From Promethearchaeota archaeon (GTDB lineage Archaea; Asgardarchaeota; Hermodarchaeia; Hermodarchaeales; Hermodarchaeaceae): DNA of 64,000 nucleotides. A program made the position numbers and the translations under genes. The notes beneath the pieces were generated by a model that did no database searches, was not told the origin of the DNA, and saw only the letters and a program-made list of their open reading frames with translations. Below, in pieces: positions 17,388 through 35,836 of the stretch (the first letter of the stretch is position 1; each line of letters begins with the position of its first letter). Location: positions 16,267 to 80,266 of the forward strand of contig JBHLPI010000001.1 in NCBI GenBank assembly GCA_048939595.1, in the 5' to 3' direction.

Positions 17388-17389
17388 CA

Positions 17390-18203: not shown

Positions 18204-18216
18204 CAGGTGAACGAAT

Positions 18217-18684
18217 TTGTCCAAGTATCTTAAAGACTTGAAATCAGCCTTTCACGAAACAGACCTGGAAATCATCGAGAGACATTCTAAACAGCCAGTT
18301 CTTCGGGTTCCCAGTGATCAATTAGTTCCAATCGCTCAATATCTGAAGGAGAATACGGGGTTTGATCATGCTGTATCAGTTTCTGTGATTGATGATTTGG
18401 CGAATAACCAGTTTCTCATCGCCTATCACCTCGCCTCTGTTAAAAAACCAGAGTTGCATGGCGTCGTCTTCACATTGGAAGTTGTGAGTCCTCGAGGAAC
18501 TCCCTCCACCCCCTCACTTACAGCAATCTGGCCAAGCGTTGAATTTCATGAACGGGAGGGTTGGGAGATGTTTGGAATTAAGTTTGAGGGGCATCCGAAA
18601 CTGGAACGCCTCCTTCTACCAGAAAGTTGGGAGGGAGGTTATCCACTTCGTAAGGATTTCAAGCAAAAGGAGGAGGCAAAATGA
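18217..18684 (+). CDS. nuoC: Complex I subunit C (NuoC, 30 kDa)
   Basis: EREGWEMFGIKFEGHPKLERLLL signature. Confidence 0.85.
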   Translation: MSKYLKDLKSAFHETDLEIIERHSKQPVLRVPSDQLVPIAQYLKENTGFDHAVSVSVIDDLANNQFLIAYHLASVKKPELHGVVFTLEVVSPRGTPSTPSLTAIWPSVEFHEREGWEMFGIKFEGHPKLERLLLPESWEGGYPLRKDFKQKEEAK

Positions 18685-19760: not shown

Positions 19761-19766
19761 TGATGA

Positions 19767-20816
19767 ATGTTGCAGATTCTCGAAACGATTAACATCTTAA
19801 TTCAGCAAATGATTACCTTTGTTTTAACAAACTTAACGACAATATTCCTCCTCACTGTGTTTCCTGGATTTCTCACCATCGTCCTTGCAGCTGCAGCAAT
19901 TATTTGGTTTGAACGAAAATTCCTTGCGAAAATGCAGTTACGTGTTGGTCCCCAATACGCAGGGCGTATCGGAGGAATCTTACAACCCGTCGCGGATTTC
20001 TTGAAGCTTATCTTCAAAGAAGGAATTGTCCCTAAACGTGCGGATAGTTTCTTTTATCAATTAGCACCAATTCTTATTGTCACCCTAGCAGCAGTCACCG
20101 CCACTGTAATTCCCGTCGGACCCACTGCCGTCATCGCCAATCTTGAATATGGATTATTATTCATTTTTGCTGCTGGTGCACTTTTTCCCGTTCTTGCTTT
20201 CTTAACTGCATGGGCGAGTAACAGTGCTTATCCGTTTCTGGGTGGTCTTCGTGCGCTTCTTCAGATGATGGCATATGAAGTACCTTTATGGCTGTCAGCG
20301 GTGGGTGTTGTTATTCTGGCTGGATCATTCAATCTCACAGCTATCGTATTGGCCCAAAATTGGCTTTGGTTTGCAATCCTCATGCCTTTAGGAGCGGTAG
20401 TCTTTTTCACCGCAATGCTTGTTGAGCTTGAACGCATTCCCTTCGATTTACCAGAAGCAGAACCAGAAATTGTGACAGGATACATGAGCGAATACTCGGG
20501 TATGAACTTTGGCTTAATGATGATGTCACAGTATCTGAAACTCTACCTTGGAGCCCTACTTTTCACTACCCTTTTCTTAGGTGGGTGGCTAATGCCACCA
20601 TTCATCACTACGATACTTCCCTTTATTCCGCCCTTCATATGGACCCTTCTCAAAACTGCTTTTGTGATTGTCCTCTTTCTACTCCCACGAGGAATCTATC
20701 CCCGTGTTAAAATCTCGAAACTCCTTAAACTGGGTTGGAACCGCCTCTTCTTCATTGCTGTTGTAAACCTGGTCTTGGTAGTTGGAATTATGTTTGTTCT
20801 TGGAGGTGTTCCCTAG
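19767..20816 (+). CDS. nuoH: Complex I subunit H (NuoH/ND1)
   Basis: FERKFLAKMQLRVGPQYAG...GILQPVADFLKLIFKE signature. Confidence 0.85.
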   Translation: MLQILETINILIQQMITFVLTNLTTIFLLTVFPGFLTIVLAAAAIIWFERKFLAKMQLRVGPQYAGRIGGILQPVADFLKLIFKEGIVPKRADSFFYQLAPILIVTLAAVTATVIPVGPTAVIANLEYGLLFIFAAGALFPVLAFLTAWASNSAYPFLGGLRALLQMMAYEVPLWLSAVGVVILAGSFNLTAIVLAQNWLWFAILMPLGAVVFFTAMLVELERIPFDLPEAEPEIVTGYMSEYSGMNFGLMMMSQYLKLYLGALLFTTLFLGGWLMPPFITTILPFIPPFIWTLLKTAFVIVLFLLPRGIYPRVKISKLLKLGWNRLFFIAVVNLVLVVGIMFVLGGVP

Positions 20817-21244
20817 TGCCGATCAAAGCGTCCTGGGCTGGACTAAAACAGATATTCAAACGTCGAGTCACCATTAAATACCCAAGTCAAGAATTAGAAC
20901 TGACAAAACGTGAACGTGGTCGCCACGTCTTTTACTTCGACCGATGTATTAGTTGTTCCTTATGCGCTCGGAGCTGCCCAACCTATGCGATTACTATGAT
21001 TGATTACCCAGGGAAAGAGAAGCCGAAGAGACACCCACAAATAGATTATGGTTTATGTATTTTCTGTGGGTATTGTGTCGATGCCTGTCCAAAGGATGCA
21101 CTAGTGCATTCTCGCTATTTTCATTTAGCAAACCGAGAAACTGCTCCGCTGGTTTTCAGTCCTGATCAGTTAGCAGAGATTCCCGAAGGAGAAGACCATC
21201 TTCTCCCATCTAATGAAGAATCTGAAAAGGAGGAAGACCAATGA
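20816..21244 (+). CDS. nuoI: Complex I subunit I (NuoI, 2x[4Fe-4S] ferredoxin-type)
   Basis: CISCSLCARSCP and CIFCGYCVDACP motifs. The GTG start overlaps the nuoH stop (TAGTG). Confidence 0.8.
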   Translation: MPIKASWAGLKQIFKRRVTIKYPSQELELTKRERGRHVFYFDRCISCSLCARSCPTYAITMIDYPGKEKPKRHPQIDYGLCIFCGYCVDACPKDALVHSRYFHLANRETAPLVFSPDQLAEIPEGEDHLLPSNEESEKEEDQ

Positions 21245-21759
21245 TTGATCCATTCTTCTTGCCAGATCTAGCGCTAATCGTAATTGGAGTTCTAACCATC
21301 GCGGCTGCTATAGCAGCCCTTGAGTCAAGAGAGATTGTTTACGGGGCAATTTCATTGGCTGGGATGTTCTTGGGTATTGCAGGGCTGTTCATCTTATTGG
21401 ACGCTTCATATGCAGCGATGTTTCAAATATCTGTGTATATTGGCGCTGTGGTCGTTCTGATCTTCTTTACCATTATGGTCGTTCCCTACGAACATTGGCG
21501 ATATCGGCTCAAACGACCGCGACGGGAATGGATTATTCCCCTGGTTATCAACGCACTCCTATTCAGTGTACTTCTCTACATCTTCTATTCACCCGCAATT
21601 GTTGAAGCCTTGCCAGACCCGGCATTTGGTTGGAACATAACAGATCTTGCCTTAGCTCTTCTGGAGGATTATGGTGTGGCACTATTGATTCTCGGGATCG
21701 TTCTTGCTTCAGCGCTCATAGGAGCCCTAACTTTGATAAAAAAGGAGGATGAAACCTAA
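21241..21759 (+). CDS. nuoJ: Complex I subunit J (NuoJ/ND6)
   Basis: Hydrophobic protein in the syntenic position, with a Gly-rich TM1. Confidence 0.7.
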   Translation: MIDPFFLPDLALIVIGVLTIAAAIAALESREIVYGAISLAGMFLGIAGLFILLDASYAAMFQISVYIGAVVVLIFFTIMVVPYEHWRYRLKRPRREWIIPLVINALLFSVLLYIFYSPAIVEALPDPAFGWNITDLALALLEDYGVALLILGIVLASALIGALTLIKKEDET

Positions 21760-22079
21760 TGGCGACGTTGGTCGTGTATCTGGTAATTGTAGGCTTCCTT
21801 GCGGCGATTGGGCTCTATGGATTGACTAGTAAGCGGAATGTCATGCGATTATTCTTTAGTATTGAAATCCTCATGAATGCAGCGAATTTGAGTTTCGTCG
21901 CTTTTGCCCGGTATGTACTATGGGGAGTTGCTGCGCTGGCTGTCATGGGCCATGCCATTGTGCTATTTGCTATAGCCCTTGAAGCCGCGGAGGCTGCCAT
22001 TGCGCTGGCAATTATTCTCCTCGTCTCACGAGTGCGAGGTTCAGTTGACATTCGTGAGCTTCGTGATCTGGAGGGTTAA
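21759..22079 (+). CDS. nuoK: Complex I subunit K (NuoK/ND4L)
   Basis: FFSIEILMNAANLSFVAF signature in a roughly 100-aa protein. Confidence 0.85.
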   Translation: MATLVVYLVIVGFLAAIGLYGLTSKRNVMRLFFSIEILMNAANLSFVAFARYVLWGVAALAVMGHAIVLFAIALEAAEAAIALAIILLVSRVRGSVDIRELRDLEG

Positions 22080-22084
22080 CCACT

Positions 22085-23617
22085 TTGCAGACGGTCATCG
22101 ATACTATCATAATCTTCCTGCTAACTCATCCGCTAACTTTGGGCATGTTCCTTCCACTCCTCTTTGCAGGCGCAATCTATCTCTTTGCACGACACCGGGA
22201 ACGTACAGCACAATGGGTAAGTATAATTGCAATAGTTCTCTCTATGGGTCTGGTATTGTTACGTGGATTAGAGCTATTCCCCTTTTCGACGTCTTCACCG
22301 CCCTATGTCTTAGAAACGTTTCTCTGGATTCCAACCCTTAATATTACCCTGAGCTTCATGCTCGATGGGCTTAATTTCCCTATAATAATTATCACAGCAA
22401 TTATTACTGCCCTAATAATTTCCTTTAGTCGCTATTACTTTGAAAATGTGAAAAATAATGGTACTTACTTTGCGACGATTCTCCTGATGTATGTTGGAAT
22501 GCTTGGCGTGTTTGTCGCGGCAGATCTTTTCTTATTCTATTTGTTCTGGGAAATCACAATCATACCAGCATATGTTTTTGTCATCTATTGGCGAGAAACA
22601 GGAGTTTCCAAAGTAGAGGCCCAAAAGACTGGTATGAAATTCTTCCTTTGGACACATGTAGGTTCCCTTGTTATGCTAATGGGTCTGATCCTTGTCTTCA
22701 CGTTAACGGGAACCACTAGAATGGTTGACATTCCAGCCGCATTGGCAACGGTGCCAATCGAATTTATGCATATTTTGCAATTTGCTGCGGCTGCAATGAT
22801 ATTCGGATTCATCGTCAAACTTGGCATTTTTCCTTTCCATAGTTGGCTCCCAGATACTTATGTTCAGGCTTCATCACCTGTCACTGCTCTAATTGGGGGA
22901 CTTCTTGCCAATATCGGAGCCTACGGATTGATACGGATTACAGCAAGTTGGTTTCCATCGATTATTGTCGCATGGTCAGTTCCACTGGGTCTACTCGCTA
23001 TATCCTCTATAATCTATGGTGGATATCTTGCCATTGGTCAGAGTGAATTCAAGCGGCGATGGGCCTATTCAAGCGTGAGTCAAGGTGGATACATCCTTCT
23101 TGGCGTTGCATCAGTTTCGGTCCTTGGACTTGCAGGCGCAGCCTTCCATATTATCAATTCGGCGATTATCAAATCCGCCTTATTTCTTACTGCTGGAGCT
23201 TATCTCATGATTGTTCGAACAACGAATATTGATTCCCTTCGTGGTATAGGCACTAAGATGCCGATAACTGGTATTTCCTTCTTACTAGCAGCTTTTGCTA
23301 TGGCCGGAATACCTCCATTAAGCGGGTTTATCAGTGAAATCCTCATCTTCCTGGGAATCTTCACGGTTTCGAATGCATTGATTGTGGCATTAATAGGAGC
23401 CGGTGCAATTTTGGTCACTTTCACTTACGTGCTTGGGCCTATTTACAAGCTCTTTGTGTCACCACCTGAATCAAAACTTACCAACAAGAAGGATCCATCT
23501 CACTGGCAATCAATTCCATTCATCCTCATGACACTCCTTGTAGTTGTCATAGGAATTTGGCCTGACCTAGTTCTAACGCCAATTGGACACTGGGTACTCA
23601 ATCTAGGAGGACTCTAA
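22085..23617 (+). CDS. Additional NuoM/ND4-like (Mrp antiporter-like) membrane subunit, copy 1
   Basis: FYLFWEITIIPAYVFVIYWRETG and HSWLPD motifs of the NuoL/M/N-MrpA/D family. It lies between nuoK and nuoL. Confidence 0.75.
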   Translation: MQTVIDTIIIFLLTHPLTLGMFLPLLFAGAIYLFARHRERTAQWVSIIAIVLSMGLVLLRGLELFPFSTSSPPYVLETFLWIPTLNITLSFMLDGLNFPIIIITAIITALIISFSRYYFENVKNNGTYFATILLMYVGMLGVFVAADLFLFYLFWEITIIPAYVFVIYWRETGVSKVEAQKTGMKFFLWTHVGSLVMLMGLILVFTLTGTTRMVDIPAALATVPIEFMHILQFAAAAMIFGFIVKLGIFPFHSWLPDTYVQASSPVTALIGGLLANIGAYGLIRITASWFPSIIVAWSVPLGLLAISSIIYGGYLAIGQSEFKRRWAYSSVSQGGYILLGVASVSVLGLAGAAFHIINSAIIKSALFLTAGAYLMIVRTTNIDSLRGIGTKMPITGISFLLAAFAMAGIPPLSGFISEILIFLGIFTVSNALIVALIGAGAILVTFTYVLGPIYKLFVSPPESKLTNKKDPSHWQSIPFILMTLLVVVIGIWPDLVLTPIGHWVLNLGGL

Positions 23618-23619
23618 AA

Positions 23620-25245
23620 ATGCTACCAGGAATTCCTCTGCCATATCCATTCTTGCTCCTTTCTCTTCTAATTCCTGTCATCGCTGCAATACTAATCCTT
23701 TTAACAATCCTCGTTGGGAAGCCCTTAGGCCGAAAGGGTGCTGGGCTAATTGCATCGATTGCCATGGCGAGCTCCTTCATCATATTACTCTACGTTCTCA
23801 GTATTGTCTTAGCCGTTGGGCAACCCGTCTATGAAGAATACTATTGGTTTTCAATTGGCCCGGTAATTGTTGAATTCTCCCTCCTTGCTGACTCCCTTAG
23901 CCTCCCGCTTTCATTGGCCATCATTGGTTTGTGTACTGCATCAGCAATCTACAGTATCGAATACATCAAAGACAAGCACGATTTTGCCATGTATTATGTT
24001 CTCCTCCTCTTCTTTGCTCTTGGTATGCTCGGAGTAACCATGGCAACCAACCTCATTGTCTTCTTCATCTTCTTCGAAGGAATGAACATTCCAGCCTACT
24101 TCCTCGTCTCCAACTGGGGAACAAAGAAAGCCAAAATCATCGGCATAAAATACATACTTTATATCTTCATCGGCGCTATCTGTATCCTCACGGCTATTTT
24201 TTGGGTATTTGGAATAACAAGTACCTTGGGAACACCCACACTGAATATCTACGAGCTCCCTGCAATACTCAATCCCCTAGCATCAACAAGTCTACTAATC
24301 ATGCAAAGCCTTGCCCTCCTATTCTCTATAGGATTCTTCGTAAAAATGGCAATCTTCCCTCTCCACTCATGGCTGCCAGACTTTCATGGCGAAGCTCCAG
24401 TACCAATTCACGCTTTACTTAGCGCCGTCATGATCAAAACAGGAGCCTATGGGTTTATTCGAATTACATTCTTTTTCTTCCCATCTGTGGTTCTTCACGC
24501 CTCACTGCTCCTTGCGGTCCTAGCCATCATTACAATGATTTGGGGAGCAGGTATGGCATTAGTTCAAACGGATTACAAACGTGTTCTAGCTTATAGTTCT
24601 GTAAACCAGATTGGTTACATCCTTCTTGGTCTTAGTACCATGAACATCTTTGGAATCACTGGTGCTCTCTTTCATATTCTAACCCATGGTCTTTCCAAAG
24701 GAGTTCTACTTTACACTGCAGGTTCACTGGTGCACTCCGCAGGAACAAAACTCATCAGTAAAATGGGAGGGCTAGCCTCTAAAATGCCATTAACCTCATC
24801 CCTGAGTACAATTGGAGCACTAGCCATTGCGGGAACACCGCCTCTTGCCACATTCGTCAGTGAAGTCTTAATCTTCATGGGCGTTTTCACTGTTGGCTTC
24901 ACCTATCCGATCTTTACAGTCATAGGAATTATCGGAGTTATTTCCACTGCACTCACTGCTGCCTATTATTTGTGGACAGTTCGAAGAATATTCTTCGGTC
25001 CACCATCTAGAAAAATGGACAAAATGTATGAGGACTATCTTGCTGGCGAGTACACCCCTCCAGAAGGAATTCCACGGCGTTTCAAAGATGTCCATGAATC
25101 ACCGCCCCTGATGACTATTCCAATGCTTATTGTTGCATTCCTTATTGTTAGCTTTGGAGTCTTCGCGGGCTTCATTCTCCCAATCCTCTATCCCGCTGCT
25201 GAAGCCATCGTAACAATGCTTACAGCGACCATAGGAGGACTCTAA
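23620..25245 (+). CDS. Additional NuoM/ND4-like (Mrp antiporter-like) membrane subunit, copy 2
   Basis: FFIFFEGMNIPAYFLVSNWG and HSWLPDFHGEAP motifs. Confidence 0.75.
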   Translation: MLPGIPLPYPFLLLSLLIPVIAAILILLTILVGKPLGRKGAGLIASIAMASSFIILLYVLSIVLAVGQPVYEEYYWFSIGPVIVEFSLLADSLSLPLSLAIIGLCTASAIYSIEYIKDKHDFAMYYVLLLFFALGMLGVTMATNLIVFFIFFEGMNIPAYFLVSNWGTKKAKIIGIKYILYIFIGAICILTAIFWVFGITSTLGTPTLNIYELPAILNPLASTSLLIMQSLALLFSIGFFVKMAIFPLHSWLPDFHGEAPVPIHALLSAVMIKTGAYGFIRITFFFFPSVVLHASLLLAVLAIITMIWGAGMALVQTDYKRVLAYSSVNQIGYILLGLSTMNIFGITGALFHILTHGLSKGVLLYTAGSLVHSAGTKLISKMGGLASKMPLTSSLSTIGALAIAGTPPLATFVSEVLIFMGVFTVGFTYPIFTVIGIIGVISTALTAAYYLWTVRRIFFGPPSRKMDKMYEDYLAGEYTPPEGIPRRFKDVHESPPLMTIPMLIVAFLIVSFGVFAGFILPILYPAAEAIVTMLTATIGGL

Positions 25246-25246
25246 T

Positions 25247-27280
25247 ATGCTTCTGTACGCACAATGGCTCGCATGGATCATTCCCGTCCTCGGTGCGATT
25301 CTTATCGCTACAGTTGGATGGTTCGATAAGCGGCTTCCCAAATACATTGCTGTTGTTGTTGGGGCTATTGCCGCTATATTCGCTGTTTCCATGATTCAAG
25401 ATATACTTGCCTTACCATCCTTAGGAGTAGCTTACCTTGAATTCAATTATCCATGGGTAGTGCTACCTGGAATCACAATCTATGTTGGAGTTCTCCTCGA
25501 TCCATTAAGTGTCTTCATGAGCAACATTGCCATCCTCATCGGCTTCCTGATCATCGTCTATTCCATGAGCTATATGGGTGAAGATAAAAGCCAAACCCGC
25601 TACTATGCGATGATTCTTCTCTTCATCGGTGCTATGACAGGCCTCGTACTTTCTAACAACTTTCTCCAATTATTCATCTTCTGGGAAATTGTGGGAATCT
25701 GCTCATACGCACTAATCGGATTCTGGTATGAAAAACCGGAGGCGGCGCGGGCTGGAATGAAAGCCTTTGTCGTGACTCGTGTGGGCGACGTGCTCCTTCT
25801 GATCGGTATCGTATTCCTTTTCACGCAGGTAGGATCTTTTAACTACATTATCATTCAAAACGCCGTACAACTTGGTATGGTTAGCCTTTTTGCACTCACC
25901 ATGGTTTCGCTCTTCACCTTTGGTGGTGCCATGGGTAAATCTGCGCAAGTTCCATTTCAAGTCTGGCTTCCAGATGCTATGCAGGGTCCAACACCCGTTA
26001 GCGCTCTGATCCACGCAGCGACAATGGTCAAAGCGGGCATCTATCTTGTGGGTCGAACCTTCTTTCTTTTTGGTTCTGTCACACTTTGGCTTAATACAGT
26101 CATCATTATCGGTTCAATCACTTCAATACTTGCAGCAACAATAGCTTTAGCTTCCACTGATCTCAAAGGTGTTCTCGCCTATTCAACGATAAGCCAACTT
26201 GGTCTTATCATGGCTGCACTCGGAGTCGGAACGGCAGTAGGATGGTTTGCAGGTCAAGCGCACGTGATGAGCCATGCCATCTTTAAAGCCTTACTCTTCC
26301 TTTGCGCAGGTTCAGTCCTTCATGCTGTCATGACTAATGATATCAACCAGATGGGAGGGCTCCGCCATAAAATGCCAATAACATTTGCAGCAAGCGTGAT
26401 TGGTGTTTTAGCGTTAGGCGGTATATTTCCCTTTAATGGATTCTGGAGTAAAGATCTCATATTTGCAGCTACCTTGAACTCTGGTGCACTCATACCCCTA
26501 GTTCTGCTTTGGGCGGCGTCTGTGTTTACTGTGGCGTATAGTTTCCGGTGGATAATTTTGATTTTCTTAGGTGAACCACGAAATGAGGAAGTCGTTTTGC
26601 ATGCCCATGAAAGTCCCAAGTTAATAACCATCCCACTAACCATCTTAGCCACGGCCGTTATCATTTCAGCAGTTCTCATTCCCACAGGATTACTGGCAAC
26701 CTATTTTGATGTTCATATCCATTTTGAAATCGAACTGATCCCACTCTTGCTTTCGCTCTCTACCCTTGCAATCGGAGGGATTCCAGCGATTTTAGTCTAC
26801 AAATATCGAAAGCCAGGACCAGAAACATTTGGGCGAAACCGCATAAGCGGTGTGATACAAAAGGTGTTAAGCAATGGATATTACTTTGACAAAGTCTATG
26901 ACTGGGTTTTTGTACGTGGTACACTTCGAATTTTTAATTTCATCCTATCACGAATTGAACTTGGCACCATTGACCGATTCCACTATGTTTTGGCACCCAA
27001 AGTAGAAGCTGGAAGCCTCAAGTTAGAACAGGTAGTCGAGCATCGAGGATTTGATAGTGCTAATAGCAAATTTTCGCAATTCATAGTCAAAACATCGAAT
27101 GCCAGCAACTATGTAGATGTGAATATAGTTGATGGAGTAGTCAACAGAATCGCCACTGCAGGAGAGAGAGCCTCCAAAGGTCTACGGCGAGTACAAACAG
27201 GTGTCACAATGAACTATATCCTCGCCTTTGTAATTGGGATAGTTCTACTGATTCTATTTCTGGTAATATTGGGTTGGTGA
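25247..27280 (+). CDS. nuoL: Complex I subunit L (NuoL/ND5) with the long C-terminal extension
   Basis: 677 aa, with the NuoL signature FIFWEIVGICSYALIGFWYEKPEAARAGMKAFVVTRVGDV. Confidence 0.85.
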   Translation: MLLYAQWLAWIIPVLGAILIATVGWFDKRLPKYIAVVVGAIAAIFAVSMIQDILALPSLGVAYLEFNYPWVVLPGITIYVGVLLDPLSVFMSNIAILIGFLIIVYSMSYMGEDKSQTRYYAMILLFIGAMTGLVLSNNFLQLFIFWEIVGICSYALIGFWYEKPEAARAGMKAFVVTRVGDVLLLIGIVFLFTQVGSFNYIIIQNAVQLGMVSLFALTMVSLFTFGGAMGKSAQVPFQVWLPDAMQGPTPVSALIHAATMVKAGIYLVGRTFFLFGSVTLWLNTVIIIGSITSILAATIALASTDLKGVLAYSTISQLGLIMAALGVGTAVGWFAGQAHVMSHAIFKALLFLCAGSVLHAVMTNDINQMGGLRHKMPITFAASVIGVLALGGIFPFNGFWSKDLIFAATLNSGALIPLVLLWAASVFTVAYSFRWIILIFLGEPRNEEVVLHAHESPKLITIPLTILATAVIISAVLIPTGLLATYFDVHIHFEIELIPLLLSLSTLAIGGIPAILVYKYRKPGPETFGRNRISGVIQKVLSNGYYFDKVYDWVFVRGTLRIFNFILSRIELGTIDRFHYVLAPKVEAGSLKLEQVVEHRGFDSANSKFSQFIVKTSNASNYVDVNIVDGVVNRIATAGERASKGLRRVQTGVTMNYILAFVIGIVLLILFLVILGW

Positions 27281-27286
27281 GTCATT

Positions 27287-28747
27287 ATGGTTCTTTGGGA
27301 AAATGCATTACTCATATTGATTGGCGGAGCATTACTAGGTTCAGTCATTTTGTACCTGTTGGGTCGATTTGGCGAAAGGATTGTCAAAGGCTTTGCTGTG
27401 ATCTGGACCGCCCTCTTGTTCCTTTTCACAGGACTAATATGGTTAGGATTCAACTCCAGTGCACCAGGATTTTCCTACCTCATCGAAATCCCTTGGATAC
27501 CAACCCTTGGTATTACCTTCAAACTGGGTGTTGATGGGATCAGCTTTCCATTGCTTTTAGCCACAACGCTTCTCACTTTAGCTGCAACGATTGGATCCCT
27601 TACATTAATCAAAGAACGAGTCGCTATGTACTTTGGCACACTCTTACTGCTTGAAGCTGCACTTATTGGAGTATTTGTTTCTCTGAACTTACTTGTCTTC
27701 TTCATCTTTTGGGAACTCGTTCTAATTCCCATGTTTATTCTAATCGGTATTTGGGGCTATGAAAACCGCCGATATGCGGCAATGAAATTCCTAATCTTTA
27801 CCCATGTTGGCAGCATCCTGATGCTCTTGGGATTCATCATACTCTTCCTCTTCGCTGGTACCTGGGATTTGACCTACTTCCTCACTTCACCAATTCCCTT
27901 CGCTGTTGCAGTACCAGTCATGATAATCACTTTCATTGGATTCGCCGTGAAACTACCCATTGTTCCCCTTCACACCTGGCTTCCCGATGCCCACGTTGAA
28001 GCCCCAGCCCCCATAAGCATCATCTTAGCAGGAGTCCTGTTGAAAATGGGAGGCTATGGCTTAATCCGTATTACTATTGGAGTGTTTCCTGAAGTTTCAG
28101 CGTGGCTGGCACCAATCATCATGACCCTAGGCATTATAACGATTTTTTACGGTGCACTGGTCGCATTAAATCAACGTGACATGAAACGTATGATTGCCCT
28201 AACAAGCATCAATCACATGGGACTAGTCCTCCTTGGTGCTTTTACGCTCACAACCATTGGAGTTGCAGGTGCCGTATTTATGATGTTCAATCATGCCTGT
28301 GCAATAGGTATGATGTTTCTGCTTACAGGCGTTATCCAAAAACGCACAGGAACTCGAAACATAGACGAACTATCAGGTATGGGCAAATTCATGCCTTGGA
28401 CAGCCTTTTTCTTCGTTTTAGGTTCACTTGCCTCTATGGGAATACCATTCTTTGCACCCTTCGTCAGCGAATTCATGATCTTTACTGGCGCTCTTTCAAT
28501 TCTACCGCTTCTGGTGTTTATTATTCTCGCACCAGGAATTGTCGCGGCCTATTTTCTATGGACAATTGATCGCATTGTAATTACTGACCCACGCCCAGGA
28601 ACCCGTATGCGACGTGCTCGTAATACAGAACTTATCGCGCTTACGTTGTTACTGATTCCAGTTATTCTCCTTGGACTCCTTCCTGCGATGATGGTTGACC
28701 GGATTATTCCAGCTGTACAAGTCTTACTAAGCTTTGGAGGTTCGTAG
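27287..28747 (+). CDS. nuoM: Complex I subunit M (NuoM/ND4)
   Basis: FKLGVDGISFPLLL and FFIFWELVLIPMF signatures. Confidence 0.85.
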   Translation: MVLWENALLILIGGALLGSVILYLLGRFGERIVKGFAVIWTALLFLFTGLIWLGFNSSAPGFSYLIEIPWIPTLGITFKLGVDGISFPLLLATTLLTLAATIGSLTLIKERVAMYFGTLLLLEAALIGVFVSLNLLVFFIFWELVLIPMFILIGIWGYENRRYAAMKFLIFTHVGSILMLLGFIILFLFAGTWDLTYFLTSPIPFAVAVPVMIITFIGFAVKLPIVPLHTWLPDAHVEAPAPISIILAGVLLKMGGYGLIRITIGVFPEVSAWLAPIIMTLGIITIFYGALVALNQRDMKRMIALTSINHMGLVLLGAFTLTTIGVAGAVFMMFNHACAIGMMFLLTGVIQKRTGTRNIDELSGMGKFMPWTAFFFVLGSLASMGIPFFAPFVSEFMIFTGALSILPLLVFIILAPGIVAAYFLWTIDRIVITDPRPGTRMRRARNTELIALTLLLIPVILLGLLPAMMVDRIIPAVQVLLSFGGS

Positions 28748-30217
28748 ATGCAATTTACTGAAATGATCATATGGTTCTTCAGCCTTGTTGCTAGCCCTTT
28801 CTTCCCCTTCATCATATTTGCGATTCTAGCGTTGCTTACACCTGTTATCGATCGAGTCTTTCGAGGGAAAGTCGCCCCTTTTTGGGCACTCCTCAATCTT
28901 GCTATATTCGCAATATTAGTGCTGCCTCAATGGACGACCATTATTACTTCACCATCCGTCTCCACAACCCTCCTCCTAGATGGCATTAGCCTATTTTTCG
29001 TGACTCTTTTCATCGTCGTTGGTGTTGCCGTCATCATTGCATCAATTAACTACTTCGAGGAAAATCCCAACAAAGAGATCTACTACACATTACTGCAACT
29101 AGCCCTTCTAGGAATGATGTTGTTATCCATGGCAGTTGATTTAATTGTCATGTTCGCCGGATGGATACTCGTTGCTGTTAGCAGCTACACACTTGTGGTA
29201 ATTCGTAAAGACAATGCACAAGGTGTTGAGGCTGGCGTAAAGTACCTCATCATGAGCGCTGCATCCTCAGCAGTAATGTTACTTGGCATCTCAGTAATCT
29301 TTGGACTCACAGGAAGTACTCGATTAGTAGAGATTTCTTCGGCATGGACTACCCTTGATCCAAACCTTGTTCCTATCGCCCTACTAGGCGTAATGTTGAT
29401 TCTAGTTGGATTTGGGTTCAAAATGGGCATCATCCCATTCCATATGTGGCTGCCTGACACGTATGAAGGCGCCCCACAGCCAGTTTCCGCCTTTCTAGGC
29501 GGAGGCTCAAATAAAGCCGCTTTTGCTGTGGCTATCCGTGTCTTCATTTTAGGATTCCTGATCTTCCGCTTCCAATGGACTGCTGCATTTGCTTTTCTCG
29601 CACTAATAACTATGACGTGGGGAAACATTGCAGCTCTCTCACAAAAAACTCTTCCAAGGTTGCTCGCATATTCAGCTATTGCACAAGCGGGGTACACAAT
29701 AATCGGTCTTGCCGTACCAACGGTCTTAGGATTATCAGGCTTAATGTTTCATGCCTTGAATGATGGATTAGCCAAAACAGGAGCATTCATTGCAGCAGCA
29801 GCTGTCGCTTTTACGCTTACGAAAACCAAACTTTCTGGATACAATGGCTTAAGCAAACGAATGCCAATCACTGCTCTTAGCTTAACAATTCTACTTTTAG
29901 CACTTGCAGGTGTCCCTCCTTTGAGTGGATTTTTCAGTAAACTGATTTTGTTTACAGCAGCAGTCGAAGTAGGATTACTCTGGTTAGCACTCGCAGGTGT
30001 CCTTAATAGCGCGTTTTCACTTGCTTATTACGGATGGATAATCAAACGAATGTTTATGGACGAGCCTGACGAGGCGGTCACAGATCAGCCCGTCAGAGAA
30101 TCACGTAAATTCCAGTTTGTGCTCATCACACTAGCAGTAGCCACAATTCTCATTGGAATTTTTAGTGGTATAATTCTCGGATACATCGAAGCCATAGTGA
30201 TTGGGTTCTTACCTTAA
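28748..30217 (+). CDS. nuoN: Complex I subunit N (NuoN/ND2)
   Basis: GVEAGVKYLIMSAASSAVMLLGISVIFGLTG signature. Confidence 0.8.
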   Translation: MQFTEMIIWFFSLVASPFFPFIIFAILALLTPVIDRVFRGKVAPFWALLNLAIFAILVLPQWTTIITSPSVSTTLLLDGISLFFVTLFIVVGVAVIIASINYFEENPNKEIYYTLLQLALLGMMLLSMAVDLIVMFAGWILVAVSSYTLVVIRKDNAQGVEAGVKYLIMSAASSAVMLLGISVIFGLTGSTRLVEISSAWTTLDPNLVPIALLGVMLILVGFGFKMGIIPFHMWLPDTYEGAPQPVSAFLGGGSNKAAFAVAIRVFILGFLIFRFQWTAAFAFLALITMTWGNIAALSQKTLPRLLAYSAIAQAGYTIIGLAVPTVLGLSGLMFHALNDGLAKTGAFIAAAAVAFTLTKTKLSGYNGLSKRMPITALSLTILLLALAGVPPLSGFFSKLILFTAAVEVGLLWLALAGVLNSAFSLAYYGWIIKRMFMDEPDEAVTDQPVRESRKFQFVLITLAVATILIGIFSGIILGYIEAIVIGFLP

Positions 30218-30235: not shown

Positions 30236-31591
30236 TCATTCATTGGGTGGAGTTATTCGTAAGAATTGTCCAACAAGTGTAACGATGTCAACCACCGGTA
30301 TGTCCAAGCCAAGCCGTTGCATCCCATGAGTAAGATTAAGAACACAGAAAGGACAGGCAGAGACAACCATGGTCGCCCCTGTTTCCATAATTTCACCAAC
30401 ACGTTCCCAGGCCATGCGCTCTTCTAAAGGCATTACCGCCTTTTCTTCTTCGGAAAGTTCATGATACTCTCTTGTTAGGTTTTTTGCCGCCTCCTTAACT
30501 TGAGCTGGGGAACTGGTAGGTTTGGCATCATGGATTCGTTTTGCGGCGATCTCTAAGGCAAGCTCTGGTATTCCAGCTTTTACTCCACCCCCAGCGCCAC
30601 AACACCGTGAGTATTCTCGGGTGCGCTTCATCTCGACAAGTGTTATGCCAGGCAAAAGCTCAAGGATTCGTCGAGGCTCATCATAGACGCCTACATGGCG
30701 ACCAAGATGACAGGGGTCGTGATATGCTACACGTTCCTCAACACCCGGGAGGGGGTCAATCTTAACGGTTTCTAATTTCTTAGCAAGCAATTGTGTAATA
30801 TGTTGAACTTTGAAAGGTAACTTCCCGTAGTATCTTGGCCAATCGAAGACAGAGGTTCGAAAACAACCAGAGCATGAATACACAACGAGGTTCACACCTT
30901 TTTCTCTGATAGTGTTTACATTGTGTTGAACGAGGTCTTTGACGACTTCAATCTGTCCAGTTCGAATAAGTGGAGAACCACAGCACCGTTCATCATTTCC
31001 GGGTAATACAAAATCGATATTTAGCTTGTTTAGAATCCGAGCTGTGGTAATGGCGAGGTGTTGCATCTTATAAGAAGATGTACATCCCACAAAATATGCT
31101 ATATCTGCGGTCTCAGCTACTTTGACATCAGAAGGCAACCAATTTGATCGTGCAAGATGATCTTCTCCATACGGGTTATACTTGGTTTTAACATTAGTTG
31201 GCCATTGGCGCTGTCGTTCGAGTGGTCCAAAACCTTGCTTCACCATATCAGCGCGAATTGTTTCCCATAGACTACAACTTTTAATTCGTGATTCACACAC
31301 CGTTTGACACTGTCCACAGACTGTGCAAAGGTAAAGATCTTCCACAAACTTGTCGATCTTATTCTTATCAATAAGACTTCCACCTCTAGCCCGTCCCATA
31401 ATTCCGTAGACGTGTTTGACCATTTCTCGCAGATTTCGAATCTTTCCACGAGCTGTTACACCTTCGCGCTGTAACTGGTCAAAGACTGGACAGAACTTAA
31501 CACATTCCCCACAATCGACACAAGCATCGAGTTCCATCGTTTGTTTTCGAGTTAATTGTGGGAAACTCATTTTTTCTTTATTAGTTGTCAT
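30236..31591 (-). CDS. HdrD-like / GlcF-like iron-sulfur oxidoreductase with two CCG domains. Start uncertain: 31651, 31591 or 31570.
   Basis: Two ferredoxin-like 4Fe-4S motifs (CVDCGECVKFCP, CTVCGQCQTVCES) and two CCG cysteine clusters (FVGCTSS, RCCGSPL, HDPCHLGRH, CCGAGGG, CPFC). Confidence 0.75.
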   Translation of the reverse strand: MTTNKEKMSFPQLTRKQTMELDACVDCGECVKFCPVFDQLQREGVTARGKIRNLREMVKHVYGIMGRARGGSLIDKNKIDKFVEDLYLCTVCGQCQTVCESRIKSCSLWETIRADMVKQGFGPLERQRQWPTNVKTKYNPYGEDHLARSNWLPSDVKVAETADIAYFVGCTSSYKMQHLAITTARILNKLNIDFVLPGNDERCCGSPLIRTGQIEVVKDLVQHNVNTIREKGVNLVVYSCSGCFRTSVFDWPRYYGKLPFKVQHITQLLAKKLETVKIDPLPGVEERVAYHDPCHLGRHVGVYDEPRRILELLPGITLVEMKRTREYSRCCGAGGGVKAGIPELALEIAAKRIHDAKPTSSPAQVKEAAKNLTREYHELSEEEKAVMPLEERMAWERVGEIMETGATMVVSACPFCVLNLTHGMQRLGLDIPVVDIVTLVGQFLRITPPNE

Positions 31592-32306
31592 TCTCATCAA
31601 CACCCGTGACTTCGCGAATATATTCCTCCTCCCACTTTTCTTCAATCGCACTACGAACCATGATTATTGGCGCCGCAATGATATGCTGAAATTTTGAATA
31701 AAATAAAACGGCAATCATCGTCCATATAATGAATCCGTGAATGATTCCATACCACCCGCGAATACCGATAACATATTCATAGGAAAACGCTAAATGCCCT
31801 GATACTGCAATAGACAGCAGTAGAATCAACGGTAAGTAGTTATGAAAGTTTGTTACCGCTCGCCCCTCTTTCGAACCAATGCGGCTCCCAAAAGCCAGTA
31901 TTACACCAATTACTAGCATTATAGTCAATACATCATGAGCAATGATTCGCATTTCCAGAGTAGCCCAAGGAAAGAGAATGGCTTCATTAAGTAAAATGAG
32001 CCGAGGGATCCCATGGAAGAAAAGGAGACCTGCAAATCCCACCAAAATAAATCCGTGTTTCACCCATCTAAACATGGACTGACGTCTTATCGTTCCACCA
32101 AAAGTCCAATCAGAGATTACCGTCTTAATAAAAGCCACAAATTTTGTTCGAAAAGGCACATCAATGAGCCAACCAGCTGTATGCTCAGCAGGTTCTTCGT
32201 GTGGTTTCGTCCAACGGACGAGAATCCGAATGAAACCGATCGTAAACAGGGCTAACGCGATCCAACGATAGAAAAACAAAATTTGATACGCTAGCTCTTG
32301 TTCCAT
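31581..32306 (-). CDS. Putative membrane cytochrome b-type subunit (HdrE/DsrM/NarI-like), partner of the HdrD-like protein
   Basis: About 5 transmembrane helices with several conserved-looking His residues. It is immediately upstream of, and overlapping, the HdrD-like gene. Family assignment rests on context and topology. Confidence 0.45.
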   Translation of the reverse strand: MEQELAYQILFFYRWIALALFTIGFIRILVRWTKPHEEPAEHTAGWLIDVPFRTKFVAFIKTVISDWTFGGTIRRQSMFRWVKHGFILVGFAGLLFFHGIPRLILLNEAILFPWATLEMRIIAHDVLTIMLVIGVILAFGSRIGSKEGRAVTNFHNYLPLILLLSIAVSGHLAFSYEYVIGIRGWYGIIHGFIIWTMIAVLFYSKFQHIIAAPIIMVRSAIEEKWEEEYIREVTGVDENDN

Positions 32307-32480
32307 AAAATCGCACCTTTAACCTCTATTCAAACGCCCCAGATTTTCATCATAAGGCTTCCCAATTTACTATTCGTACCTCTTTTCAGACAGAACAGAC
32401 CGTGAAAAAAGAAAAGGGGAAAATTGGAGGGCGTGACAACAAGGTCAATAGCCCTCCAATTTCGTTTTCGTCATGTAAAT

Positions 32481-33179
32481 CTATGTCCATAATCCTAAAA
32501 ATCGTAGGAATGCGGTCTTAGATTCCTCGAGCTTAGGACCGAGCCACTGGTCCACACCAAGGTATCGACCGGCTTGATACATTCCTGCGACGAAGAATGC
32601 AACTGAGCCAAGGAAGTTGACACCAAATGTGGAGACACTCAGCCACCCGAGCAAGAAGAGGAATGTCCATTGCATGAGTACACCACCGAATGAACCTAAT
32701 CGAGTAAAGAACCCGAAGGTTAAGGAAAGCCCGACCAGAAGTTCACCTGCAGCAATTAATATCAAAAAGAACGTTGGATTCAATAGAATTACTATATTGA
32801 AAAACCCTTGAATATATGGGCTGGGAGCTGAAGATGCAGCAAGCATCAGAAGCCCATAGTTTGTTGAATACGCAGGATTGAGAAGCTTTTCTAAACCGCC
32901 ATGAAGAAATTCATAGCCTAAGGCTAATCGCAATGGGAGTAAGATTGCTAGAATTGGAAATTTTTCAGGCCAAATCCATCGCAAGAAGAATATAGTTGGC
33001 ACTAGAATAATCGCTAGTATAATGAGAGGTGACAAGGCTAAGCTGAGCCAAGGAAAGAGAATTGCTGGATCTGGAACCATCCACTGTGGTCCTAAACTAA
33101 GTAGGATAATGGCTAGAAGAATCGCATCTACGATCACTAGAAAGATAAGACCGATCCACTGATTTCGATTTAATTCCAT
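32481..33179 (-). CDS. DoxX-family membrane protein (DoxD-like), with extra N-terminal helices
   Basis: The C-terminal roughly 140 aa carry the DoxX-like motif LRLALGYEFLHGGLEKL and 4 transmembrane helices. Confidence 0.45.
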   Translation of the reverse strand: MELNRNQWIGLIFLVIVDAILLAIILLSLGPQWMVPDPAILFPWLSLALSPLIILAIILVPTIFFLRWIWPEKFPILAILLPLRLALGYEFLHGGLEKLLNPAYSTNYGLLMLAASSAPSPYIQGFFNIVILLNPTFFLILIAAGELLVGLSLTFGFFTRLGSFGGVLMQWTFLFLLGWLSVSTFGVNFLGSVAFFVAGMYQAGRYLGVDQWLGPKLEESKTAFLRFLGLWT

Positions 33180-33329: not shown

Positions 33330-34046
33330 TTAGAGTCGAATTTCGAGTTGACACCCTTCATCTCCATGCGATCTACAGCTCACGCGTTCGACACTTCGAA
33401 TTGGTTGTCCGCACATTATTGTAAAAAGTGTCGGGTAGTAGCTATTGTGAAAGTGGCACATTAACCCTTCATATTTGAAACTAACTTCTTGGAATAAGCA
33501 ATTATAGGTACGGATTACAAGTGTCTTATCCTGAAGATGAACACTAGCATTGTAGCCAAGCTGATTTAGGGATTCGCCAAGTTTTTTTCGAAAGGTAGCA
33601 GTGCTCATGGGAACTCGGTGACTTTGACGCCATACTTGTGCAGTATCTTTCGCCGCTTGTTTTCCCATGTCTTGGAATAGCTCAATTGTGGCTTCCCTTC
33701 CCAATTTTCTTAAAAAAGTAGAAATCAGCATATCCGCAAGTTGCCAATATCGACGGGGAGGTGTTGTGATGATTAACGCTTTTTGGAGACAGTATCGTTG
33801 GGCTGGTCTTCCTCGGGAACGGGGCGCATCTATGTCGATTTGGCTTTCAGCAATAACTTTCAAGGCGAGAAGATCAACGAGAGTGTATCGGATAGCTGAT
33901 TCACTGAGATTTGTTCCCTTGGCAATATCGCTAATTGTAGAATTTGGATGAGTGGAGATGAATTCGATAATCCGAGTAGCCGCTCGCTGACTATGTATAG
34001 GAATTCGTGAGAGTGTTTCATTATCTATAATTAATTGGTTTGTCAT
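33330..34046 (-). CDS. Winged-helix transcriptional regulator with a C-terminal Cys/His-rich, putatively metal- or ligand-binding domain
   Basis: N-terminal wHTH (ISDIAKGTNLSESAIRYTLVDLLALKVI) and a C-terminal CHFHNSYYPTLFTIMCGQPIRSVERVSCRSHGDEGC. Start placed at ATG 34046. Confidence 0.5.
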   Translation of the reverse strand: MTNQLIIDNETLSRIPIHSQRAATRIIEFISTHPNSTISDIAKGTNLSESAIRYTLVDLLALKVIAESQIDIDAPRSRGRPAQRYCLQKALIITTPPRRYWQLADMLISTFLRKLGREATIELFQDMGKQAAKDTAQVWRQSHRVPMSTATFRKKLGESLNQLGYNASVHLQDKTLVIRTYNCLFQEVSFKYEGLMCHFHNSYYPTLFTIMCGQPIRSVERVSCRSHGDEGCQLEIRL

Positions 34047-34106: not shown

Positions 34107-34376
34107 CTAGCCATATTGAAATGCGGCTCCGAAGGTTCCTCGTGGGTAATTCCATTCGATAACACGTTTAGGGCAGAGAATTTTGCAGGTTCCACATTCA
34201 ATACAGTCTTCGTATTGGAATTGGAATTTGCCTCCTTCGATTTCAAAACACCCTGCGGGGCAACCAGCGATGCAAGGTTTATTTTTACAACCTTCGCATT
34301 CTTCAGTTTGCACAATGATATGTGGTTCTTTGTCGATGTTATAGCGAATAAGCCCAAGTTTTTCTGCGAGTTTCAT
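34107..34376 (-). CDS. fixX: FixX-like ferredoxin
   Basis: An 89-aa protein with Cys arrangement CEGC...CIAGCPAGC...CIECGTCKILCP and a C-terminal W.YPRG typical of FixX. Confidence 0.75.
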   Translation of the reverse strand: MKLAEKLGLIRYNIDKEPHIIVQTEECEGCKNKPCIAGCPAGCFEIEGGKFQFQYEDCIECGTCKILCPKRVIEWNYPRGTFGAAFQYG

Positions 34377-35656
34377 AATCCTCTCACCACTTGTAGTCCA
34401 TCCCGAATAAGTGATGGAATTGTTACGTTTCCTAGAACATGCCGAATTAGGTGCTGAACGAGTTTCTGTCGAGGCACACCACGTGAAGTAAATAGTTCGC
34501 GTGCGAACGCATTTACTAGATTAGGATACGTTGTGTGCACACGTGGATTGTTGAACAGGTATCGGGCCCGTTTGAAGGTTTTCATGTCTTTAAGAACAAA
34601 GCTGTCTTGGAGTGATTTTTCGTAGTACTTTAAGCTTCGCTTAGTGAAGTCGCCCGATTTAGACGCAGCTATTACTGTTTCAGCAGCAGCTATGCCAGAT
34701 GCAATAGCGAAGTTCATTCCTTCAAGAGCATAACCAATATTAAAGGCAAGACCTGCTGCGTCGCCTATGACTAAAAGACCATCCGTGTAGAGCTTTGTGA
34801 TGCCTGAAAAGCCTCCTTCGGGGACTAGATGAGCGGAATACTCTTTGAGGTCTCCGTTGCGAATTAAACGTTGGATGAACGGATAGGATTTGTAGTGCTC
34901 TATAAGGTCAGGTGCTGTTTCGCTGGTTACTTCGAATGCGGGAAGGAAGATAACAAGACCTAATGAAAGGGTGTCATGGTTTGTATAAAGAAAACCACCA
35001 CCCGGATAGCCTTTGGTACACCCGATGAAATGGTATGCTGCGCCCTCATTGCCGATAAGATTGAACCGTTCTTCAATGACATCCCGTGGAAGCGCATAGA
35101 CTTCTTTGATACCCAGCCCCATTTGTTCGGGTGTGTGGTCTTTTCGAAGGTTGGCTTTCTTCGCTAATTGCGAGTTGACTCCGTCTGCTGCAATCACCAC
35201 ATTCGCAAAGACTTCATCTGTCCCTGCTTTTACTCCGATAATTTGATTATTTTCCCAAAGTAAATCGTCTACTCGAATGCCGGGGGCAAGGAGAGCTCCT
35301 GCTTTTTCGGCTTCCTTGGCAAACCATTGATCGAACTTATAGCGGTTCACCGAATAACCATCATTTGGAAAGGGGGTACGTTTTCCTGATGAGAAGTCTA
35401 AGGTGAACGCAGAACCATTGGAGAGTAACGAAAGTCTGTGAGTTGTTATTCGTCGTTCAACAGGAGCTTGTTCCCAGTATTTCGGAATCAAGTTATGGAG
35501 CACTTGCCCATATAGAACCCCGCCTGAAACATTCTTTTCACCGGGAGTTTTTGCTCGTTCAACTAGCATAACCTGTAATCCGGCTTTTGCTAGTGTATAG
35601 GCTGCGGCATTTCCAGCAGGACCAGCACCAACAACAATTGCACTAAGTGAGTCCAT
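34373..35656 (-). CDS. fixC: FixC-like FAD-dependent oxidoreductase (ETF:quinone oxidoreductase family)
   Basis: AIVVGAGPAGNAAAYTLAKAGLQVMLVER FAD fold. It is followed immediately by fixX. Start placed at ATG 35656. Confidence 0.7.
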   Translation of the reverse strand: MDSLSAIVVGAGPAGNAAAYTLAKAGLQVMLVERAKTPGEKNVSGGVLYGQVLHNLIPKYWEQAPVERRITTHRLSLLSNGSAFTLDFSSGKRTPFPNDGYSVNRYKFDQWFAKEAEKAGALLAPGIRVDDLLWENNQIIGVKAGTDEVFANVVIAADGVNSQLAKKANLRKDHTPEQMGLGIKEVYALPRDVIEERFNLIGNEGAAYHFIGCTKGYPGGGFLYTNHDTLSLGLVIFLPAFEVTSETAPDLIEHYKSYPFIQRLIRNGDLKEYSAHLVPEGGFSGITKLYTDGLLVIGDAAGLAFNIGYALEGMNFAIASGIAAAETVIAASKSGDFTKRSLKYYEKSLQDSFVLKDMKTFKRARYLFNNPRVHTTYPNLVNAFARELFTSRGVPRQKLVQHLIRHVLGNVTIPSLIRDGLQVVRGL

Positions 35657-35836
35657 ATTCTTCGCCTTTAATTTTTTTGACTTCTTTACAAATAAGTGCA
35701 TAAAAAATGACTATATTATAACAATTATCAACTTCTTTACTGAGATTTCATAAAAATGTTAATAGACAAGTACGAGAGAACATAGGCGTTTCTACAGCTA
35801 TTTATGCGCTGAACGGAGAATTGTAAATGTGATTAG

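Follow-up and report, generated by a model that had tools for sequence, protein, structure and literature searches.

The 64,000-nucleotide stretch of DNA analyzed here (hereafter the window; positions 16,267 to 80,266 of contig JBHLPI010000001.1, assembly GCA_048939595.1) derives from a Promethearchaeota archaeon of the family Hermodarchaeaceae and carries, on the minus strand, an hdrE-like gene for a membrane protein directly followed by an hdrD-like gene for an iron-sulfur (Fe-S) protein, with a gene of the doxX/doxD family upstream (Table 1; hdrED denotes the hdrE-like and hdrD-like pair). The host genome (G000) comprises 2.34 Mb on 167 contigs, with 84.5% completeness and 4.9% contamination. 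The original prediction, made from the letters of the window, had read the three open reading frames (ORFs) as an HdrD-like protein with two CCG domains, an overlapping His-rich membrane protein with five transmembrane helices, and a DoxX protein, and all three are present on the minus strand where it had placed them. The overlap between the first two is likewise real, but it amounts to 11 nt (ATGACAACTAA) and not 71 nt. The larger figure came from a 471-aa hdrD ORF with a GTG start at 31651, which was dropped because orthologues in the databases are 451 aa long and begin at the ATG at 31591. Judging by this short overlap, hdrE and hdrD are a typical coupled gene pair.

From 35701 to 30236, the minus-strand gene order (5' to 3') is fixC, fixX, a winged-helix regulator, doxX, hdrE, and hdrD. 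The regulator, doxX, hdrE, and hdrD form a discrete cassette, which fixC and fixX flank from outside. The doxX gene, which the original prediction had placed after the pair, lies 5' of it, separated from hdrE by a 174-bp spacer. As predicted, the stop codons of hdrD (30236) and of nuoN (30217), a gene of the complex-I-like operon on the opposite strand, are convergent with 18 bp between them. The cassette had also been described as lying downstream of this respiratory operon; it is a convergent neighbor of the nuo operon and not a member of it. Across 11 orthologous loci, the median dN/dS of doxX, hdrE, and hdrD is 0.05–0.11, indicating purifying selection on all three genes, and that of the hdrE/hdrD pair is 0.05–0.07.

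Table 1. Positions of the genes and other features within the window.
Feature	Position (nt)	Strand	Description
hdrD-like Fe-S gene	30236-31591	minus	451 aa, P0014; two ferredoxin-type [4Fe-4S] motifs and two CCG motifs
hdrE-like membrane gene	31581-32306	minus	241 aa, P0002; five-helix NarI fold, putative di-heme cytochrome b
Conserved hairpin and T-rich run	32405-32462	minus	12-bp arms, directly past the doxX stop
doxX/doxD-family membrane gene	32481-33179	minus	232 aa, P0003; two additional N-terminal helices
Winged-helix regulator gene	33330-34046	minus	Cys/His-rich V4R-like C-terminal domain
fixX	34107-34376	minus	FixX, E 1e-19; flanking context, outside the cassette
fixC	34373-35701	minus	FixC, E 1e-119; flanking context, outside the cassette
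Complex-I-like operon	17022-30217	plus	nuoABCDHIJK and five antiporter-like subunits, without nuoEFG
Cluster of MenA, polyprenyl diphosphate synthase, and geranylgeranyl reductase genes	11163-14663	minus	

Iron–Sulfur Subunit

Sequence comparison identifies the Fe-S subunit as a true HdrD relative. Its long-ORF form (P0001) matches the Pfam CCG family at 129 bits in addition to Fer4 families, and the protein shares 41–47% identity with Methanosarcina HdrD over ~95% of its length (E ~1e-115, >400 bits). Genuine Methanosarcina HdrD proteins are its top matches beyond its own clade. In an alignment of 22 sequences, two CX2CX2CX3C motifs (C24/27/30/34 and C89/92/95/99) and two complete CCG motifs (C170/203/204/240/243 and C294/330/331/413/416) are invariant, as are the blocks YHDPCHLGRH and RCCGAGGGVKAG. 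All 18 cluster cysteines (8 + 10) are thus kept, and they are also invariant over 10 species. Only the Asgard clade has the insert of ~46 aa found within the second CCG domain.

A tree of 51 rows was built with a quick method and SH-aLRT support, without bootstrap and with no verified ETF:menaquinone oxidoreductase (EMO) among its rows. It places the protein inside a clade (99% SH-aLRT) to which all HdrD proteins encoded next to an HdrE belong. Within this HdrE-associated clade, the Asgard proteins and two metagenome clades are sister to the HdrD proteins of methanogens and methanotrophs, and a bacterial, partly fused subclade is separate from the Asgard one. Soluble HdrD-like proteins, including three paralogues from the host and the copies of other Asgard lineages, fall outside it. 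The complete motifs, the Pfam match, and the position in the tree bear out the original assignment of the subunit as an HdrD-like CCG protein.

The three paralogous genes (C119:31538-32755, C147:3523-4794, and C90:38981-40201 of the host genome) each adjoin a gene for a soluble protein of ~490–520 aa, perhaps of the GlcD/Dld type and not an HdrE-like cytochrome b. The host genome also has two HdrB-like genes (C85:41522-42481 and C90:14044-14931). The host thus has several soluble CCG enzymes, and a thiol/disulfide carrier may be common to these and the membrane-bound one.

Membrane Subunit

The membrane protein P0002 matched no Pfam family, including NarI (PF02665), and gave only weak matches to the QmoC, TmcC, HmcE, and DsrM models. 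Genuine Methanosarcina HdrE likewise has no Pfam match, and more distant relatives of P0002, such as P0140, do match PF02665. A word-based homologue search retrieved 9 near-identical relatives, and an exhaustive HMMER search of 1.84 billion representatives retrieved 46 at E ≤ 0.001. The closest relatives are encoded directly upstream of the closest HdrD-like relatives, in the order hdrE-hdrD. Comparison of the Asgard profile with M. thermophila HdrE by hhalign gave a probability of 95.4% (E 1.7e-8, 206 columns); identity to Methanosarcina HdrE is ~23–25%, and residues R80, W81, H84, G134, G170, H190, and H208 are invariant in the alignment with real HdrE.

P0002 has five hydrophobic helices and nine His residues, six of which are invariant among orthologues; an additional conserved position is His124, and His171 occurs only in the Asgard clade. 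The loop charges obey the positive-inside rule for a topology with the N-terminus outside and the C-terminus inside. An AlphaFold2 (AF2) model built from a 30-row alignment has five helices with a pLDDT of 85.6, whereas an earlier model from 10 close sequences (pLDDT 51) was not usable. Structure alignment of the newer model with VIA-align gave Z-scores of 14.8 for NarI (184 residues) and 14.3 for EtfD (227 residues), with the next match at 8.3. A Foldseek search of the model against the Protein Data Bank (PDB) returned nothing at E ≤ 0.001, the top match being NarI at E 0.014, and the sequence profile matched no PDB chain even at E 10. Taken by its profile comparison and predicted fold, the membrane protein is a remote and divergent relative of HdrE and NarI.

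The original prediction had proposed an HdrDE/DsrMK-like arrangement. The HdrDE-like part stands, given the HdrD clade and the hhalign match to HdrE, and the DsrMK-like part does not: the scores are 50.4 bits for DsrK (cut-off 400) and 14.7 bits for DsrM (E 0.013, cut-off 300), and membership of DsrMK was rejected on this basis. Four other relatives of P0002 (P0135, P0136, P0138, and P0139) carry a zinc-ribbon-like C-terminal tail with two CxxC pairs, which is missing from the Asgard and Methanosarcina forms of HdrE.

Putative Heme Ligands and Predicted Complex

The bis-His pattern looked for in the membrane protein is conserved on helix 2 (H84 and H98) and helix 5 (H190 and H208), so the original prediction is not refuted on this point. 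All four residues are invariant over 10 species. H84, H190, and H208 are common to genuine Methanosarcina HdrE, whereas at position 98 the Asgard clade and near relatives have His and Methanosarcina-type proteins (P0152, P0155, P0175, P0177, and P0179) have Ser. Since residue 98 is His where the Methanosarcina type has Ser, the distal heme site of the Asgard form looks like the classical four-His, bis-His site of NarI and not like the Methanosarcina type. A bioRxiv preprint of 2026 on HdrE and EMO models the Ser at this position as coordinating a stacked twin heme (10.64898/2026.08.18.745454). The putative ligand pairs, in what looks like the NarI arrangement, are H84/H208 on the cytoplasmic side and H98/H190 on the outer side, as the predicted interface with HdrD includes the region around H208.

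This interface comes from a predicted HdrE-HdrD complex with an ipSAE of 0.82 in three runs, whereas three controls all gave 0.00. At least 84% of contacts were common between runs, and the pLDDT of the partners was at least 72. The ipSAE mark is reached by 58 of 80 solved complexes and by 2 of 110 mismatched pairs, a rough calibration since own alignments were used. In the complex, the ferredoxin domain of HdrD faces the cytoplasmic loops and the C-terminal helix of HdrE (residues 26–47, 66–76, 155–156, and 205–236), and the two proteins are accordingly predicted to bind each other.

Distribution of the Cassette

The distribution was examined in 19 genomes of the family (G000 and G093–G110), representing 15 species of one genus and 4 of its sister genus. 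At E ≤ 1e-5, the HdrE profile matches 10 of the 15 species, none of the 4 sister-genus genomes, and none of 381 other Asgard genomes (0/385 outside the genus). Orthologues of hdrD and doxX occur in exactly the 10 hdrE-bearing genomes of the 19, and the same holds for NuoD orthologues with 50% identity or more. The cassette is inherited together with the complex-I-like enzyme in this genus. Its occurrence in exactly the genomes with a quinone-type nuo operon supports the electron exchange with a membrane carrier pool that the original prediction had proposed. MenA mostly tracks the distribution of hdrED, and fixC is present in more genomes than hdrED. SQR was found in 5 of the 10 genomes with hdrED, and 2 genomes that lack hdrED have it as well, a distribution that rules out an obligatory link between hdrED and SQR. 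No description of the genus-restricted cassette, the four-His HdrE, the DoxX partner, or the tie to a five-pump complex I was found in the literature.

The cassette is also seen to come and go as a block. G106 and locus L006 share synteny from fixC-fixX as far as the rhodopsin and photolyase genes, and within this region G106 cleanly lacks the block of regulator, doxX, hdrE, hdrD, and NmrA genes. In L006, the cassette is far from any nuo or SQR genes. The NmrA gene of this block encodes a 491-aa protein with an NAD-binding domain 3' of hdrD (L006:12194-13669 and L007:12192-13664); it is not at that place in the window, where nuoN abuts hdrD. Two independent metagenome loci from another HdrD clade show the same associations with fixCX and nuo genes: hdrED is directly followed by fixC (47% identical) and fixX in an apparent operon in L004 (5234-9155), and lies directly upstream of nuoJKCDHI... 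on the same strand in L018 (1-8826).

The reading frames are intact in 9 of the 10 hdrED genomes, and the hdrD of G099 (C267:671-2020) has an in-frame TAG. In-frame stops (TAA and TAG) were also seen in two SQR orthologues (G106:C64:5513-6721 and G108:C100:12075-13277). The stops in these hdrD and SQR orthologues may reflect sequencing errors, decay, or recoding. The window further encodes a Ras-family GTPase and a TackOD1 protein, with closest homologues from Promethearchaeota metagenome-assembled genomes.

DoxX, Spacer Hairpin, and Regulator

The DoxX protein P0003 passes both the DoxD (PF04173, 47.8 bits, cut-off 22.7) and DoxX (PF07681, 44.9 bits, cut-off 23.6) families. The position of its gene, ~170–200 bp upstream of hdrE, is kept in three related contigs. 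The DoxX partner of the original prediction is therefore real in its link to the pair, being found in the same 10 genomes and at the same position, whereas its membership of thiosulfate:quinone oxidoreductase (TQO, DoxDA) was rejected, as P0003 scores 35.6 bits with the TQO DoxD model (NF041179) against a cut-off of 300.

The spacer between doxX and hdrE contains a hairpin that folds at –25.4 kcal/mol (z –5.98), a value equalled by 0 of 200 shuffled sequences. Four genomes keep both arms, and a single compensatory change is seen in L005. The hairpin and its T-run resemble a terminator, so doxX and hdrED are probably separate transcripts. Further along the spacer, a conserved motif and GGTG precede the hdrE start. 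Despite the likely separate transcript, doxX is inherited together with hdrED.

The regulator has a weak likeness to SufR and MsvR, and its likely start is M13 of the ORF. A 240-aa orthologue is present in L006, and the gene is missing from G106 together with doxX-hdrED. It is gained and lost with doxX-hdrED and is placed elsewhere in L005 and L007.

Probable Respiratory Chain and Membrane Carrier

The 13-gene complex-I-like operon, which lacks nuoEFG, lies in the same island as hdrED. Its NuoD lacks the cysteine motifs of NiFe hydrogenases, which indicates the quinone type, and the complex-I-like enzyme is the probable partner of HdrDE through the carrier pool. The window also contains a MenA gene scoring over the TIGR00751 cut-off, adjoined by genes for a polyprenyl diphosphate synthase and a geranylgeranyl reductase, which together would equip the cell to make a prenylated, partly saturated membrane carrier. 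Enzymes of these kinds also build the methanophenazine side chain. The same island encodes a type III SQR (E 1e-87) as well as a DsrE2-like carrier, and genes for ETF alpha and beta are located on contig C10. No COX1/heme-copper oxidase, cytochrome bd, Succ_DH_flav_C, NrfD, or bc1-type cytochrome b was found in the host genome, and it yielded only weak molybdopterin matches.

Proposed Function and Alternatives

Taken as a whole, hdrED is best explained as encoding a membrane-bound, HdrDE-type, quinone-linked thiol/disulfide oxidoreductase, a reading we consider fairly probable. The HdrE-like subunit would span the membrane five times with its N-terminus outside and its C-terminus inside, and would bind one heme b toward the outer side through H98/H190 and a second toward the cytoplasmic side through H84/H208, with the HdrD-like subunit docking via its ferredoxin domain onto the cytoplasmic loops. 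Electrons would move between a prenylated, menaquinone-like carrier, the two hemes, the two cubane clusters, and the non-cubane cluster pair, at which a disulfide would be cleaved or two thiols joined. Three modules that could reduce the carrier are visible (Nuo, SQR, and FixCX with ETF), and a quinol:disulfide reductase is favored because HdrDE is the sole visible module able to oxidize it. The genome yielded neither a terminal oxidase nor a fumarate reductase, an NrfD-type reductase, or a bc1-type cytochrome, so HdrDE would most likely be the quinol-oxidizing end of a chain that leads from ferredoxin through the five-pump complex I and the carrier to HdrDE and a disulfide, possibly operating a redox loop as in Methanosarcina. 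The original prediction of a disulfide or heterodisulfide-type reductase is thus supported, with the refinement that CoM-S-S-CoB cannot be the substrate as far as the genome shows, given that neither Mcr nor ComA was found; the substrate may instead be a low-molecular-weight or protein-bound disulfide or persulfide. DoxX would probably be an accessory quinone-interacting membrane protein carried in the same mobile block as the redox-type regulator. The homology, the sets of cofactor ligands, the predicted complex, the behavior as a cassette, and the co-occurrence are shown by the data, whereas we infer that heme is bound, which carrier is used, which way the electrons flow, and what the enzyme acts on.

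Several observations weigh against this assignment. No McrA (MCR_alpha) or ComA match was found in the 84.5%-complete genome, so no pathway that generates the substrate is visible. A terminal reductase could also have been missed, as the genome is only ~84% complete. The redox potential of menaquinone is about –74 mV, and if the carrier is plain menaquinone, the reduction of ordinary disulfides would be uphill and could proceed only with a low-potential carrier or with help from the proton gradient. Because the genomes compared are closely related, their co-occurrence pattern may come down to very few gains or losses, or even to a single one, and the score of the predicted complex may echo the solved fused homologue EtfD (9OJN) and so may not be independent evidence. 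As to cofactors, ALAD/HemB was found in 0 of the 19 family genomes, which leaves the cell without heme synthesis, and MqnA/D and MenD above the cut-off were also each found in 0 of 19, which leaves the naphthoquinone head group unaccounted for. Of the quinone biosynthesis that the quinone pool of the original prediction would call for, MenA is present, and the pathway for the naphthoquinone head group was not found. Ten family genomes without ALAD still encode HdrE, and most of those also encode MenA. A methyltransferase (HemN-like), of a kind that could hint at methylmenaquinone, is encoded beside hdrED in locus L002; the host genome gave only a match of 26% identity to it, too low to be informative. 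From the absence of ALAD, MqnA/D, and MenD in the 19 genomes, heme and head group would therefore be scavenged or another cofactor or carrier used, which points to a family that is auxotrophic for both or whose cofactor and carrier differ from what homology leads one to expect.

EMO and EtfD, known from Syntrophus and mycobacteria, respectively, transfer electrons from ETF to menaquinone and carry out no thiol chemistry (PMC13083937; 10.64898/2026.08.18.745454). The Hermodarchaeaceae pair could be an entry point of this kind, in which electrons from reduced ETF or FixCX would reach quinone via the clusters and hemes, and the lack of a visible heterodisulfide source would then be no obstacle. 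EtfD is the best solved-structure match of the Fe-S subunit (E 2e-33), and the membrane model fits EtfD nearly as well as NarI. The ETF genes on C10, the fixCX genes that flank the cassette and that directly follow hdrED in L004, and the publications that describe EMOs as HdrDE-like and widespread (10.64898/2026.08.18.745454; PMC13083937) agree with such a role. We nevertheless consider it unlikely, as the similarity to HdrD (>400 bits) is far above that to EtfD (119 bits) and the subunits are encoded by two separate genes (241 and 451 aa) with no fusion. The two characterized EMOs have a degenerate distal cluster site, whereas all ten cysteines are kept here, and alignment to 9OJN shows CT and His583 in EtfD in place of the CC of the HdrD-like protein (PMC13083937). 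The tree, in which no verified EMO is included, places the protein with archaeal HdrDE and apart from the bacterial, partly fused subclade. Moreover, FixCX already gives the link from ETF to quinone, fixC is not confined to the hdrED-bearing genomes, and the chain would be left without any quinol-oxidizing enzyme.

The neighborhood beyond the nuo operon raises a further alternative, a DsrMK-like sulfur relay that would act on a persulfide or trisulfide held by TusA, DsrE2, or a DsrC-like carrier from the SQR-TusA-DsrE2 cassette, with DoxX pointing to thiosulfate or sulfur chemistry. The SQR and DsrE2-like genes of the island, the DoxD family as the quinone-binding subunit family of TQO, and the weak matches of the membrane subunit to DsrM, HmcE, and TmcC are in line with it. 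The DsrK, DsrM, and TQO DoxD scores far below their cut-offs, the patchy overlap of SQR with hdrED, and the cassette of L006, distant from nuo and SQR genes, make this relay quite improbable. The lack of ALAD throughout the family, together with the in-frame TAG in the hdrD of G099, might also suggest a heme-free or decaying remnant, whose membrane subunit would no longer be a cytochrome and whose genes would have another role or none. Such an explanation is very improbable in view of the strong purifying selection on the pair, the four candidate heme ligands and all cluster cysteines that are invariant over 10 species, and the frames intact in all but one of the genomes. Heme auxotrophs that load scavenged heme into their respiratory cytochromes are known, such as lactococci and group B streptococci.

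In metabolic reconstructions, anaerobic Asgard archaea have a complex I without the NADH module and a menaquinone pool, with no enzyme to reoxidize the quinol (PMC9723677). Read as an HdrDE-type oxidoreductase, the cassette is a concrete candidate for this missing step of quinol re-oxidation in one genus. More broadly, the genus may run a minimal anaerobic chain in which HdrDE respires a disulfide independently of methanogenesis, with scavenged heme and quinone head group and with parts gained and lost as gene blocks, a picture that is possible but doubtful as a whole. If true, such a chain would supply the 'unidentified terminal electron acceptor' left open in Asgard reconstructions (PMC9723677). 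The cassette would also widen the HdrDE family by a non-methanogen host, a four-His, NarI-like distal site, and a DoxX partner, and it is relevant to a recent proposal that heterodisulfide reductases and ETF:menaquinone oxidoreductases are linked in evolution. If the missing pathways are really absent, the respiratory chain would rely on cofactors from other organisms, a dependence that matters for discussions of syntrophy in the relatives of the eukaryotic ancestor.

Comparison With Known Systems

HdrDE has been annotated in Hermodarchaeota (PMC8163825), like the present case among Asgard archaea that lack Mcr. The two cases may differ, as the HdrE profile found no match at E ≤ 1e-5 in the 385 Asgard genomes outside the genus. 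NarI-type cytochrome complexes have been surveyed across archaea (PMC9478090). In locus L019 (6176-12865 of GCA_024256295.1), a NarI-family hdrE and hdrD stand beside mcrBDGA, in agreement with the arrangement published for Methylarchaeales (PMC9478090), and this locus was used as a positive reference case for HdrDE in a methanogen that does not belong to Methanosarcinales.

The membrane-bound complexes DsrMK, HmeCD, TmcBC, and HmcEF of sulfate reducers likewise pair a NarI-superfamily cytochrome b with a CCG protein in the cytoplasm that acts on an S–S bond and uses menaquinol. They differ from the pair described here in that their specific NCBIfam models score far below the cut-offs and in that the catalytic subunit is much nearer to HdrD. 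With NarI itself (PDB 1Q16), the HdrE-like protein shares the five-helix bundle, two His residues each on helices 2 and 5, and the predicted topology, but it has no significant PF02665 match and its partner is of the HdrD type instead of NarGH. The His residues on helix 2 are spaced by 14 residues in the HdrE-like protein, compared with 10 in NarI.

EMO and EtfD (PDB 9OJN; Syntrophus EMO) have in common with the pair a NarI-like membrane domain, two cubane clusters, a non-cubane cluster domain, and a tie to the menaquinone pool, and they are its best structural and solved-sequence match after NarI. They are single fused polypeptides, whereas two genes are found here, and sequence similarity to them is much lower than to HdrD. 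EtfD has furthermore lost one cluster cysteine and shields its clusters (PMC13083937), in contrast to the full HdrB/HdrD-type set in the HdrD-like protein.

The nearest counterpart is the HdrDE of Methanosarcinales, a dihydromethanophenazine:CoB-CoM heterodisulfide reductase. Both systems have the gene order hdrE then hdrD, an HdrD in which all Fe-S ligands are kept, and a five-helix HdrE with R80, W81, H84, H190, and H208, and in both HdrD docks on the cytoplasmic face, as is predicted here. Each is also paired with a complex-I-like enzyme that lacks the NADH module, which is Fpo in the case of Methanosarcinales. On the other hand, neither Mcr nor ComA was found in the Asgard host, its HdrE is of low identity and has His98 instead of Ser together with the extra His124 and the clade-specific His171, and its HdrD carries the insert in the second CCG domain. 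The Asgard carrier would probably derive from a MenA-type prenyltransferase, and a DoxX partner and a redox-type regulator accompany the Asgard cassette. Weighed together, these sequence features place hdrED closest to HdrDE, as a variant form of the HdrDE-type system and not a DsrMK-like one.

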